Shown piece after piece: positions 50,892-61,009 of a DNA stretch of 64,000 nucleotides. The stretch is from Pseudomonadota bacterium (lineage in GTDB: Bacteria > Pseudomonadota > Alphaproteobacteria > Micavibrionales > UBA2020): positions 37-64,036 of the forward strand of contig JAEXMB010000081.1 of NCBI GenBank assembly GCA_023444705.1, read 5' to 3'. Numbering within the stretch: position 1 is the stretch's first letter; each line of letters opens with the position of its first letter. The notes under the pieces were generated by a model, which had not been told where the DNA came from, made no database searches, and saw only the letters and a list, made by a program, of their open reading frames with translations. The position numbers and the translations under genes are program-made.

Positions 50892-52238
50892 TCATCGCTC
50901 GCTGAAGGCTGTCGCCATCGCCGATTGCAGAGGTTTGAGCAGATAGGTCATGATGGTTTTCTCGCCGGTGACGATATCGGCCATCACTGTCATGCCGGGC
51001 AGGATGCGGTTGGCGGTCGTGCCGACATAAGGTTTTTCAAGCGCGACGGTGCCTTCGTAAAAGCGCTCCCCTTTCTCGCCCGCAAAGGTGCTGGGGGAAA
51101 GCGCGGTCAGCCTGCCGCGCACGGCGCCATAGCGCGCAAAGTCAAAACTGCTGACCTTGACCTGCACATTCTGGCCGATTTTCAGATGGCCGATATCGGC
51201 GGGGCGGATGCGCAGGTTGACCACCAGCGGCCCGTCATTGGGCACAATTTCCATCACCGCCTGTGCCGGCTGGATGACGCCGCCGCGCAATTGCAGGTTC
51301 AGCCCCTGCACCATGCCGTCAATAGGGGCCGTGACCAGAAGGTTTTCAAGGCGGTTTTGCAATTTGGCGATCAGTTCGCGGTTTTCGCCTGATTGCGCCA
51401 GCACGCCGTCAAGTTCGCGGTGAGCGTCATCGGCGCGGCCGGCACTCATCGCCTGCTTGCGGGTGGTCAGCTCTGCCAGCATGGCCTGCGTGCCTGCAAC
51501 GTCGCCACGCAGGCGGTCGCGCGCGGCGACGGCATCGTTATAGCGTTGTTCGGTTTCCATCAGGCGCACGTCCGACAACACGCCCTGCCGGTTGAGCGCG
51601 CGGCGCTTGTCCATCAGCGATGTCATCAACGCGGCATTGCGCTCGGCACTGGCGCTGGCGCGGTGCAGGGCGGATAGTTCGGCCTGTTTCTGGCGGATCT
51701 GCTCGTCGATCACGGCCATGTCTTGCGCTGCCGATGTCTGCTGGCTTTTGAGGAAAGCGGCCTGATCGGCGATCAGTGCGTCTGCCTCCGCGCCATCTGC
51801 GGCAAAGACGGGCGCGCGGCCTTCGATCAGGGCGCGCAGGCGTTCTTCCTGCAGGTCAAGCGTGGTCTGGCGTGCCTGTGCGCGGGCAAGATCCTGGCGG
51901 ATATCGGCATCGTCCAGACGCAGAAGCGGATCGCCCCTTTTAACCATCTGGCCATCGCGCACCATGACGCTGGCCACGGTGCCGCCGTCGCGGTGCTGCA
52001 CCATGCGGCTTTGCGTGGCGGGCACGGCCTCGCCCGGCGCGCGCGCCACTTCGCCGACGTGGGCAAAGCAGGCCCAGACGATAAAGGCCAGCAACATCGT
52101 ACACAGCGTTGCGATGGTGGCACGCAAGATGCCCGGCGTTTCGGCTTCGGCCAGACGGATGGATTGCGCAAGATAGCGGGTTTGATGGGTGATGCGGTGT
52201 TTTTGCGTGCGGTGCAGGTCAAGGGTTGTGCTGGTCAT
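50892..52238 (-). CDS. HlyD-family type I secretion membrane fusion protein
   Basis: An N-terminal TM helix and a long coiled coil are followed by the C-terminal barrel, ending ...MTYLLKPL. This is a typical T1SS MFP. A 1-nt overlap links it to the upstream ABC gene. Confidence 0.93.
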   Translation of the reverse strand: MTSTTLDLHRTQKHRITHQTRYLAQSIRLAEAETPGILRATIATLCTMLLAFIVWACFAHVGEVARAPGEAVPATQSRMVQHRDGGTVASVMVRDGQMVKRGDPLLRLDDADIRQDLARAQARQTTLDLQEERLRALIEGRAPVFAADGAEADALIADQAAFLKSQQTSAAQDMAVIDEQIRQKQAELSALHRASASAERNAALMTSLMDKRRALNRQGVLSDVRLMETEQRYNDAVAARDRLRGDVAGTQAMLAELTTRKQAMSAGRADDAHRELDGVLAQSGENRELIAKLQNRLENLLVTAPIDGMVQGLNLQLRGGVIQPAQAVMEIVPNDGPLVVNLRIRPADIGHLKIGQNVQVKVSSFDFARYGAVRGRLTALSPSTFAGEKGERFYEGTVALEKPYVGTTANRILPGMTVMADIVTGEKTIMTYLLKPLQSAMATAFSER

Positions 52239-60037: not shown

Positions 60038-61009
60038 CTATTGCCAGCGCTTGCGCTTGCGGTGCAGGGTCGATACGTCGATGCCAAGCGTGCGCGCGGC
60101 GGCGCTGAGGTTGCCCTGATGCATGGCGATGGCCTGCTCGATGGCGGCGCGTTCCATATGTTCAAGTGATGTCAGCGGGCCAAGGGGGGTATGCGGTTGC
60201 GGTGATGGTATGTCGTCGCGCGCGAAGTGCCATGCACGCAACGTGCCGTTGTGTTGCGTAAAGGCGAGGGCATGGCGCAGCGTATTGGCCAGCTCGCGCA
60301 CGTTGCCGGGCCACACCTGCCGCGCCAGCCATGCGTGCGCGCTGTCGTCAAGGGTACAGCGGGCAAGGTGCATGTTCTGCAAGAGATATGCGACCAGCCG
60401 TGCGATATCGCCGTCCCCGCGCTGGCGCAACGGCGGCAGGGTAATGTGCAGCGCGCCAAGCCGGTGATAGAGATCATCGCGCAACACCCCGTCGGCGCGG
60501 GCCTGCGCGGTGTCGCGGTTGGTCGCGGCGATGATGCGCACATCGGCGCGATACTCGCGGTCGTCGCCAAGGCGGCGGTAATGGCCACTTTCGACCACAT
60601 GCAAAAGCTTGGCCTGCAACGGGGCTGGCAATTCGGTGATCTCGTCCAGAAACAGCGTGCCACCCTGTGCGCGCGCCAGAACACCGGTATAATCATGACC
60701 GGCACCCGTAAAAGCGCCGCGCTTGTGACCGAACAATTCACTGTCGACCAAATCGCGCGCAAGGGCGGCGCAGTTGAGGCTGATAAAAGGTGCCTGCGCG
60801 CGCGGGCTGCGGCGGTGCAGGCTGCGCGCCGTCAGGTCCTTGCCCGTGCCGGTTTCACCGCTGATCATCACATTGCATTCCATCGCGGCGGCGGCGGCGA
60901 TCATGGCATAGAGTTTTTGCATGCACGCGCTTTGCCCGACGAATTCGTCGAAGTCAGGCATGATGACAGGCGTATGCACAGATGCGGATGTAATCAGCGA
61001 TTGCGTCAT
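60038..61009 (-). CDS. Sigma54-dependent transcriptional activator (bEBP) lacking an N-terminal sensory/receiver domain
   Basis: The AAA+ core has Walker A GETGTGKD, the sigma54-contact loop GAFTGA (in GHKRGAFTGAG), Walker B LFLDEI, and WPGNVREL. The C-terminal Fis-type HTH is AAARTLGIDVSTLHRKRKRW. At only 323 aa it is PspF/HrpS-like in size. Confidence 0.9.
   Translation of the reverse strand: MTQSLITSASVHTPVIMPDFDEFVGQSACMQKLYAMIAAAAAMECNVMISGETGTGKDLTARSLHRRSPRAQAPFISLNCAALARDLVDSELFGHKRGAFTGAGHDYTGVLARAQGGTLFLDEITELPAPLQAKLLHVVESGHYRRLGDDREYRADVRIIAATNRDTAQARADGVLRDDLYHRLGALHITLPPLRQRGDGDIARLVAYLLQNMHLARCTLDDSAHAWLARQVWPGNVRELANTLRHALAFTQHNGTLRAWHFARDDIPSPQPHTPLGPLTSLEHMERAAIEQAIAMHQGNLSAAARTLGIDVSTLHRKRKRWQ

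Follow-up and report, generated by a model that had tools for sequence, protein, structure and literature searches.

A type I secretion locus in a Micavibrionales bacterium with a probable heterodimeric ABC exporter and a GGLFG-ending candidate cargo

We analysed a 64,000-nucleotide stretch (hereafter the window) of contig JAEXMB010000081.1 from an alphaproteobacterium of the Micavibrionales (assembly GCA_023444705.1), in which six neighbouring genes include the parts of a type I secretion system (T1SS). We consider it likely that the locus encodes a dedicated T1SS whose inner-membrane engine would be an obligate heterodimer of two different ATP-binding cassette (ABC) half-transporters, ABC-2 and ABC-1, and whose exported substrate would be the 713-aa protein encoded directly upstream. 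Four minus-strand genes follow one another in the transcription order cargo, ABC-2, ABC-1 and HlyD, linked by overlapping stop and start codons. A TolC-family gene diverges from them across a short spacer, and a gene for a receiver-less bacterial enhancer-binding protein (EBP) lies tail-to-tail with it, 6 bp from the TolC stop codon. A preliminary description, made from the DNA letters, had set out this four-gene chain, its junctions, the 275-bp spacer and the tail-to-tail 323-aa activator, and every one of those coordinates was checked and holds. Its proposal of a self-contained T1SS locus agrees with the Pfam and NCBIfam models of the components.

Two complementary ABC half-transporters

Both ABC proteins are exporters of the HlyB/PrtD kind. 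They match T1SS subfamily models best, LssB first and HlyB or PrtD next, and their best sequence matches in the PDB are HlyB and PrtD; they share 25% identity with each other. ABC-1 comprises an N-terminal C39-like domain (CLD; residues ~11–167), six transmembrane helices and a nucleotide-binding domain (NBD). ABC-2 opens directly with the membrane domain, and the ~185 additional N-terminal residues of ABC-1 match no Pfam model.

An AlphaFold2 (AF2) model of ABC-1 was built on 35 homologues, with a mean predicted local distance difference test (pLDDT) score of 76.5 and a confident alpha/beta N-domain (pLDDT 75–89). Searching with this model in Foldseek returned full-length HlyB at the top (689–690 aligned columns; targets of 691–700 residues) and then full-length PCAT1; heterodimeric exporter structures of the TM287/288, TmrAB, BmrCD and TAP1/2 kind are also among the fold matches. 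Since the alignment to HlyB spans the full length, the C39-like domain is part of the fold match. Compared with PDB sequences, a profile of the N-domain gave a weak (E = 0.17), in-register match to the HlyB CLD, and a word-index homologue search with the N-domain alone returned no matches. Pfam Peptidase_C39 was found neither in ABC-1 nor among the domains precomputed for 120 listed homologues, and the position of HlyB His83 is taken by a proline (Pro125) that the ABC-1 family conserves. Sequence and model both indicate that the N-domain has a C39-like fold without the catalytic Cys/His pair and is not a protease.

Each ATP site of an ABC transporter is formed by the Walker, Q-loop and H-loop motifs of one NBD and the signature motif of the other. 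In an alignment to HlyB, the NBD of ABC-1 has an intact Walker A, Q-loop and Walker B Glu, together with a degenerate signature (LPHSLAAR) and a degenerate H-loop (Gln). ABC-2, aligned to PrtD (5L22), has Asp-Gly instead of Asp-Glu in Walker B, Ala in place of the Q-loop Gln and Glu in place of the H-loop His, while its atypical signature, IPPGLKQR, is conserved. The catalytic-motif columns were then read in alignments of 72 ABC-1 and 81 ABC-2 orthologues (Table 1). Given the composite architecture of the sites, this census points to one near-consensus site, made of the ABC-1 motifs and the ABC-2 signature, and one degenerate site.

Table 1. Motif states in the two ABC families
Motif	ABC-1 orthologues	ABC-2 orthologues
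Walker A Lys	72/72	61/81
Q-loop Gln	63/72	14/81
Walker B Asp	72/72	70/81
Catalytic Glu	70/72	17/81 (Asn in 53)
H-loop His	22/72	10/81
Signature	never LSGGQ	I-P-P-G-L-K-Q-R: G 80/81, Q 80/81, R 79/81

To place the pair in its genomic setting, relatives were collected by a genome scan with an ABC-2 alignment as query and one genome per species; the loci of 80 of 140 relatives were fetched. Wherever the contig is long enough, the order ABC-2, ABC-1, HlyD recurs in all 80 loci. On plasmid AZO_p3 of Azospirillum lipoferum 4B, the two are one polypeptide of 1,378 aa (WP_244442643.1; L087:8806–12942), in which an ABC-2-like half is followed by a CLD/ABC-1-like half, with an HlyD gene next. The halves stand in the order of the genes here and are ~33% and ~32% identical to ABC-2 and ABC-1, respectively; the Walker B Glu is kept in both. 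The same ABC-2::ABC-1 fusion occurs on three further Azospirillum plasmids (A. sp. B510, A. oryzae and A. ramasamyi). The A. lipoferum fusion is annotated only as an 'ATP-binding cassette domain-containing protein', and database names of homologues are in general generic or misleading: 'hypothetical protein', 'ATP-binding cassette domain-containing protein', 'LapB' or 'bacteriocin exporter with double-glycine peptidase domain'.

Because motif degeneracy is complementary across the 72 and 81 orthologues, adjacency is universal and a natural fusion exists in Azospirillum, ABC-1 and ABC-2 very probably act as a heterodimer. These lines of evidence give indirect support to the heterodimeric pair proposed at the outset.

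The remaining conduit components are readily classified. The HlyD-family protein is a T1SS adaptor, scoring 347.9 bits against TIGR01843 (type_I_hlyD; cutoff 208.65) and also matching Pfam HlyD_3. The TolC-family protein has two Pfam OEP matches (1.2e-52) and reaches 201.5 bits with TIGR01844, just under the cutoff of 225.15. A divergent OEP gene adjoins the cargo gene in at least 18 related loci. Elsewhere in the window, a separate RND efflux operon (38510–44663, plus strand) encodes a HlyD_D23-type adaptor, an AcrB-family pump and its own OEP gene (43164–44663), so the TolC of the T1SS locus is not the sole outer-membrane factor encoded in the window.

The features of the locus are listed in Table 2. 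Read on the minus strand, the cargo/ABC-2 junction is ..GGA TGA over ATG AGC and the ABC-2/ABC-1 junction ..CTA TGA over ATG ACG, both of the ATGA type; at the ABC-1/HlyD junction, ..GCC TGA TG, the HlyD start overlaps the ABC-1 stop (TGATG). The ABC-1 start was set at ATG 54505, although the first ATG of the open reading frame (ORF) is at 54547, because of a GGAGAA ribosome-binding site and the fit to the lengths of close homologues (753–755 aa). The cargo most likely starts at ATG 58340, which has a GGGGGA ribosome-binding site ahead of it, TTG 58373 being merely the first possible start. An AGGAGAG ribosome-binding site precedes the divergent TolC start at ATG 58616.

Table 2. Features of the secretion locus (positions in the window)
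Feature	Position	Strand	Basis
HlyD-family membrane fusion protein, 448 aa, last gene of the operon	50892–52238	−	TIGR01843, Pfam HlyD_3
ABC-1 half-transporter, 755 aa	52238–54505	−	Pfam ABC_membrane and ABC_tran
ABC-2 half-transporter, 566 aa	54502–56202	−	Pfam domains; no N-terminal domain
Probable cargo, 713 aa	56199–58340	−	Family alignment, profile search
Cargo: conserved C-terminal region, residues 637–713	56202–56432	−	Alignment A1; C-terminal consensus over 130 members
Cargo: acidic repeats, residues ~296–600	56541–57455	−	Regular-expression matches at residues 314, 427 and 564
Cargo: Ile/Thr/Asn-rich heptad segment, residues 239–283	57492–57626	−	Predicted helix
Cargo: collagen-like run, 13 Gly-X-Y triplets, residues 175–213	57702–57818	−	Regular expression
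Cargo: N-terminal motif KLDADyY..E..GSGN..Q..Q, residues 43–76	58113–58214	−	(Near-)invariant columns in A1; 105/142 representatives
Divergent promoter region, cargo/TolC, 275 bp	58341–58615	.	Between the two start codons
TolC-family outer-membrane channel, 471 aa, signal peptide	58616–60031	+	Pfam OEP
Receiver-less EBP, 323 aa	60038–61009	−	Sigma54_activat, HTH_8, GAFTGA

A promoter/terminator scan of the locus yielded no signal above background, so no terminator-like site of that strength interrupts the four genes, and an Rfam scan of the window gave no matches. The GC content of the locus (~0.58–0.65) is that of its flanks. Long antisense ORFs of 412–512 aa lie over real genes at 56997–58439, 49508–50746 and 12994–14532 (all plus strand); they are typical shadows in DNA of ~62% GC, not genes. 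The last of these follows a sigma54-like site scoring 10/12; its translation resembles an antisense shadow of the gene at 12391–14115 (minus strand), and it was discarded as a candidate.

The candidate cargo and its protein family

The protein encoded upstream of ABC-2 has an unusual composition, with 18% Gly, 13.2% Asp+Glu and 0.6% Lys+Arg, and its computed isoelectric point lies at the 4.05 minimum. It lacks a signal peptide and matches nothing in Pfam or NCBIfam at E ≤ 0.01. HemolysinCabind does not match it, and it contains a single isolated GGSGGD and no tandem GGxGxDxUx nonapeptide repeats. Among the fetched loci, an acidic ORF ending in GGLFG lies at most ~40 nt upstream of ABC-2, or overlaps it, in ~30 cases, and these are the loci whose ABC-2 is nearest to that of the window. 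This recurrent position strengthens the earlier suggestion that the large acidic, non-RTX, collagen-like protein is the likely cargo, an assignment that we adopt on sequence grounds.

Exact-sequence look-up of the window cargo found no record. A word-index search of 5.8 billion proteins yielded only 15 relatives, at 26–33% identity save one at 77%, while a profile search of 1.84 billion cluster representatives recovered 174 relatives at E ≤ 1e-30 and 410 at E ≤ 1e-10. We aligned 14 homologues (alignment A1) and checked 142 new representatives from the profile search for motifs. Members of the family are ~420–1,240 aa long.

The family shares a succession of recognizable segments (Table 2). Near the N terminus lies the consensus KLDADxY..E..GSGN..Q..Q. 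Within the collagen-like run, Gly193, 196, 199, 202, 205 and 211 are invariant across the 14 homologues, and at least five Gly-X-Y triplets occur in 93 of the 142 representatives. The Ile/Thr/Asn-rich segment that follows is the sole long helix in the AF2 model of the cargo (pLDDT ~50–57), and its Ile/Val/Leu residues are spaced 3-4-3-4; we regard it as a probable trimeric coiled coil. The acidic region contains three 'GDTDL ... LD[LVI]VE.I.GD[IL]D' units, the first two being near-duplicates of ~113 aa. The repeat, as GDTDL...LDPVE.l.GDIDl, is present in 134 of 142 representatives, and its number varies among homologues.

The C-terminal block of the cargo carries W-P/T-x-S/T..LPD, LPDPVG/LAPVG and EGLG, for which the family form is W-T/P-E..LPD...LPDPVG..EGLG, and it ends in GGLFG (56202–56216). 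W637, P667 and G709–G713 are invariant in A1. An xLFG end was found in 117 of the 142 new representatives, exactly GGLFG in 107, and within the window the cargo is the only ORF that ends in xLFG. From this conservation we infer that the C-terminal block with GGLFG-COOH would act as a secretion signal. The collagen-like and heptad segments suggest, likewise by inference, that the mature cargo would be a trimeric fibre on a collagen/coiled-coil stalk.

Two further observations concern the ends of the cargo and other long ORFs. In the close clade, the last ~30 cargo residues (~681–713, 56202–56300) are Gly/Leu-rich and glycine-zipper-like, GGGLLGGLGGLGGGKSGGLLGGLFG; this stretch before GGLFG is absent in most other family members. 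A 972-aa ORF elsewhere in the window (18366–21284, minus strand) has no Pfam match at E ≤ 1e-5 and is unlike the cargo family.

Two closer relatives from other collections, L085 and L086, retain the entire arrangement. Between the window and L086, identity is 70% in the cargo, 87% in ABC-2, 91% in the flanking amylase, 79% in HlyD and 68% in the EBP. The cargo thus diverges faster than most of its neighbours, the EBP alone being equally divergent.

It is possible, although on balance we think it unlikely, that the cargo is not freely secreted and is instead a surface fibre tethered in or near TolC through its conserved N-terminal region, in the manner of LapA adhesins. The N-terminal motif is conserved although the N terminus exits last in a T1SS, the locus owns a dedicated TolC, and both a variable repeat number and faster divergence than most neighbours are typical of surface proteins. 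Yet the locus encodes no LapG/LapD-type partners, and instead of a plug domain the cargo has at its N terminus a short region for which mostly disorder is predicted.

Distribution and regulation of the module

The locus is not unique; it is one member, with fewer regulatory genes, of a widespread undescribed family. The hosts of the module are Micavibrio-like bacteria (Micavibrio being placed by NCBI under Pseudobdellovibrionaceae), metagenome-assembled genomes (MAGs) of Rickettsiales and Rickettsiaceae, and also Desulfobulbaceae and Desulfocapsa, with Desulfobulbales among the host groups, as well as Sneathiella, Hyphomonadaceae and many alphaproteobacterial MAGs. The nearest relatives are alphaproteobacterial MAGs. 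The highest ABC-2 identity to the window within the fetched set is 50%, which places the window's own species outside that set.

The arrangement is not due to chance: cargo-ABC-ABC-HlyD with an OEP gene diverging from it is found again in metagenome contigs that are unrelated and share just 27–29% identity in the cargo. In L086 the flanks are also kept, giving the succession ETF-QO, UDG, EBP, OEP, cargo, ABC-2, ABC-1, HlyD, alpha-amylase and glucokinase. These shared housekeeping flanks argue against a recently acquired island.

Beyond the branch nearest to the window, the genes upstream of ABC-2 differ. Rickettsiaceae MAGs have acidic ORFs of ~900–3,300 aa with other C termini, several of them cut by contig ends, and Desulfobulbaceae loci have no obvious adjacent cargo. 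Next to the Azospirillum fusion is a protein longer than 5,000 aa that has Ig-like domains and whose C terminus is RTX-like and does not end in GGLFG. The transporters thus form a wider family than the GGLFG cargo proteins do. Cargo homologues next to a module of two ABC proteins plus HlyD were seen in the ~30 loci with a GGLFG ORF upstream of ABC-2; at more distant loci the trio lacks such an ORF. Among Rickettsiaceae and Rickettsiales, the large upstream ORFs at L039:2–9847, L044:2–9838, L057:1068–6389 and L054:6035–9805 are acidic and do not end in GGLFG; they span ~1,250 to >3,280 aa, with 20–24% Asp+Glu and 2–4% Lys+Arg.

The adjacent activator has the features of an EBP, namely a sigma54-interaction AAA+ domain (Sigma54_activat, 2.6e-61) with a GAFTGA loop, ELFGHKRGAFTGA, and a helix-turn-helix domain (HTH_8, 4.7e-12), without a receiver domain. 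We treat it as a neighbour that may or may not be linked to the secretion genes. We searched 58300–58660 for sigma54 -24/-12 promoters, both by pattern with up to two mismatches and by a GG-N10-GC scoring scan, and found none; the best GG-N10-GC site in the spacer scores 7/12 and lies on the TolC strand. No such promoter was found in the equivalent regions of L085 and L086, the closest relatives, and the spacer of the window contains no consensus sigma70 match.

The spacer stretches that align to L085 are long and nearly identical. Two conserved blocks, TGGCAT and TTGCAT, were considered as a sigma54 promoter and rejected, as they are 32 nt apart and not 12. A perfect inverted repeat with 7-bp arms, TTCCGGC-N6-GCCGGAA (58564–58583), lies 33 nt upstream of the TolC start codon and is conserved in L085; it could be an operator or an mRNA-leader hairpin.

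In related loci, the sigma54 link is real as judged from sequence. Six sigma54 promoters scoring 11–12/12 lie directly upstream of the cargo gene (L036:7620, at 12/12, L002:9598, L034:6583, L035:7111, L047:7640 and L077:7674); the scan of 2.8 Mb gave just 16 sites of this strength in all. Receiver-type EBP genes are found no more than ~0.5–1 kb away from the cargo gene in L002, L034, L067 and L077. These loci, and the conservation of the tail-to-tail EBP-TolC pair in L085 and L086, speak for the idea, raised in the preliminary description, that the operon, TolC or both are switched on by the adjacent activator in this genome. We doubt it, given that the spacer offers no better than the 7/12 site and that no promoter is seen at the equivalent positions of the two relatives. 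In so narrow a clade, adjacency may also reflect no more than synteny: UDG and ETF-QO are likewise kept in it.

Other regulatory genes accompany the module more widely. A gene of ~310 aa that fuses a response regulator to an anti-sigma-kinase-like HATPase_c_2 domain directly follows HlyD in 42 of 61 loci. It is usually followed in turn by a hybrid histidine kinase with the architecture MASE1-CHASE-PAS-HisKA-HATPase-RR or PAS-HisKA-HATPase-RR-Hpt; examples of such regulator and kinase genes are L039:15273–19364, L007:15223–19620 and L031:15338–18985. The window has neither gene, which makes it the version with fewer regulatory genes.

Relation to known exporters and proposed mechanism

Among solved structures, HlyB is the best match of ABC-1, both in sequence (2.2e-61) and in fold, over the full length including the CLD. 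The HlyB/HlyD/TolC system resembles the locus in having a TIGR01843 adaptor and an acidic substrate without a signal peptide that is targeted through its C terminus, a property that the window cargo would share. The HlyB homodimer differs from the pair in its two canonical ATP sites and two CLDs, and the window cargo lacks an RTX nonapeptide array. LssB/LapB (TIGR03375) is the best-scoring curated family for both ABC proteins, and the ABC-1 match begins at profile position 2, so that the N-domain is included. The scores are well under the cutoff, and the locus has two ABC genes instead of one and lacks LapG/LapD partners.

Such homodimeric precedents raise the question of whether ABC-1 and ABC-2 could each form a homodimeric exporter of its own, for instance one per substrate class, with HlyD and TolC in common. 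Both are complete half-transporters with a transmembrane domain and an NBD, and most characterized T1SS ABC proteins, such as HlyB and PrtD, are homodimeric. An ABC-2 homodimer, however, would have two sites without catalytic Glu, Gln and His, and an ABC-1 homodimer two sites with a degenerate signature; the genes are, moreover, always adjacent, translationally coupled and, in Azospirillum, fused. We consider independent homodimers very unlikely.

A peptide or bacteriocin exporter of the NHLP/PCAT type, with the large upstream protein an unrelated neighbour, seems highly improbable: the locus shares with NHLP/Nif11 export an HlyD-family protein and a pair of ABC genes of which just one encodes an N-terminal domain (as in the TIGR03796/TIGR03797 pair), and the cargo start MALLDITGG resembles a short double-glycine leader, but the three models score far under their cutoffs (TIGR03796 181/182, TIGR03797 151/163 and TIGR03794 59 bits against 853, 709 and 156), the ABC-1 N-domain has no Pfam C39 match, lacks the catalytic His and is not a peptidase, the MALLDITGG start occurs in the nearest relatives but nowhere else in the family, and the protein that co-occurs with ABC-2 in ~30 loci is a large GGLFG protein and not a leader-bearing peptide.

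Of the systems described so far, the nearest is the MARTX system of Vibrio (RtxB/RtxD/RtxE/TolC), although its two ABC proteins are a different, symmetric pair; it is an atypical four-component T1SS in which both ABC proteins appear to be required and tolC lies outside the rtx locus (PMC3034196). Modules of two ABC proteins plus HlyD had been described as known mainly from peptide export, a view that omits MARTX, in which two ABC proteins serve the secretion of very large proteins (PMC3034196). As a kind of machine, a T1SS that exports a large protein with a heterodimeric ABC engine is thus not new. Like the window locus, MARTX combines two different ABC proteins, one HlyD-family adaptor and TolC with a large adjacent substrate.

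The differences were read from the V. vulnificus pR99 gene copies. RtxB (701 aa) and RtxE (722 aa) both have an N-domain, whereas only ABC-1 has one here. Both Rtx proteins are fully canonical in Walker A, Q-loop, LSGGQ, Walker B Glu and H-loop His, whereas one ATP site of the window pair is degenerate. RtxB and RtxE are 43% identical to each other, compared with 25% for ABC-1 and ABC-2; the window proteins are 24–27% identical to either Rtx protein, with no one-to-one correspondence. The gene order is B-D-E in MARTX and ABC-2, ABC-1, HlyD here, and the MARTX cargo is an RTX toxin, unlike that of the window. Judged from these comparisons, the window pair looks independent of RtxB/RtxE and much more asymmetric.

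A like asymmetry of the ATP sites is seen in the heterodimeric exporters TM287/288, TmrAB, BmrCD and TAP1/2, in which the catalytic Glu and H-loop His are likewise lost in one NBD and the signature of the partner is degenerate. These are drug or peptide exporters without an HlyD/TolC conduit or a C39-like domain. The Azospirillum fusion has the two halves in the same order, followed by HlyD, and differs in being a single polypeptide with both Walker B Glu residues kept.

We propose the following mechanism. Cargo, ABC-2, ABC-1 and HlyD would be transcribed from the 275-bp spacer, and the overlapping stop and start codons would couple their translation, favouring equal amounts of both ABC halves. 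ABC-1 would provide the sole catalytically equipped nucleotide site (Walker A, Q-loop Gln and Walker B Asp-Glu), completed by IPPGLKQR of ABC-2. The second site, made of the ABC-2 Walker motifs and the degenerate ABC-1 signature, probably binds ATP without hydrolysis, as in exporters of the TM287/288 or TmrAB type. The single C39-like domain of ABC-1 probably holds unfolded substrate, like the CLD of HlyB, and HlyD and the divergently encoded TolC would complete the channel. Recognition of the 713-aa substrate would depend on the ~75 conserved residues at its C terminus, with GGLFG-COOH as their end, and the protein would leave unfolded, C terminus first. Outside the cell, the Gly-X-Y run and the Ile-heptad helix probably trimerize into a stalk, and the acidic repeats probably fold as well, perhaps with the help of Ca2+, which would give a fibre or adhesin that is extracellular or on the cell surface.

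Several observations weigh against this proposal. Both ABC proteins fall below the curated cutoffs of every T1SS subfamily model: ABC-1 and ABC-2 score 400.9 and 337 bits with the LssB model TIGR03375 (cutoff 693.1), 291 and 227 bits with the HlyB model TIGR01846 (725.6) and 212 and 250 bits with the PrtD model TIGR01842 (510.2). In the presumed active site, the H-loop His is missing from 50 of 72 ABC-1 orthologues and is replaced by Gln in the window, and the ABC-2 signature also deviates from LSGGQ, which makes the ATPase chemistry uncertain.

On the side of the cargo, the Gly-X-Y run, at 13 triplets, is short, and the Pfam Collagen model detects 3 of the 14 homologues but not the window cargo. 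The monomer AF2 model, built on the 14-sequence alignment, is uninformative (pLDDT 38); such predicted disorder is expected of a protein that must stay unfolded before export. More distant trio loci carry other cargo types or none obvious, so that the pairing of GGLFG protein and transporter is limited to one branch. In L086 (4780–12261; ABC-1 87% identical), the cargo (622 aa) lacks ~60 residues of the conserved C-terminal block while keeping GGLFG, and both OEP and ABC-1 are broken into two reading frames each. Locus decay or an assembly error may explain the split frames and the shortened cargo, and L086 therefore neither supports nor tests the signal hypothesis.

The general kind of machine is known; this two-subunit family and the GGLFG cargo family are undescribed, and full-text literature searches found no paper on a T1SS with this ABC pair or a GGLFG terminus. 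Tentatively, and with rather less than even confidence, we suggest that they may form an unrecognized class of T1SS, in which an obligately asymmetric heterodimer (one CLD, one working and one degenerate ATP site; fused in some lineages) would use a new, strictly conserved GGLFG signal to export trimeric collagen/coiled-coil fibres typical of Micavibrio-like epibiotic predators and related bacteria, perhaps for contact with prey or host.

The mechanism of T1SSs is known almost wholly from homodimeric ABC proteins such as HlyB, PrtD and LapB. Here the CLD is restricted to one half and the catalytic Glu to one ATP site, and ABC halves with such split functions would offer a clean system in which to ask how many CLDs and active ATP sites are needed and which subunit reads the C-terminal signal. 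The GGLFG C terminus is a simple candidate secretion tag and a search key for several hundred unannotated proteins. The response-regulator/kinase-like gene after HlyD in most loci and the sigma54 promoters upstream of the cargo gene in several suggest that secretion is regulated. Because the family occurs mainly in Micavibrio-like predators, Rickettsiales and other alphaproteobacterial MAGs, its fibres could play a part in cell–cell attachment.

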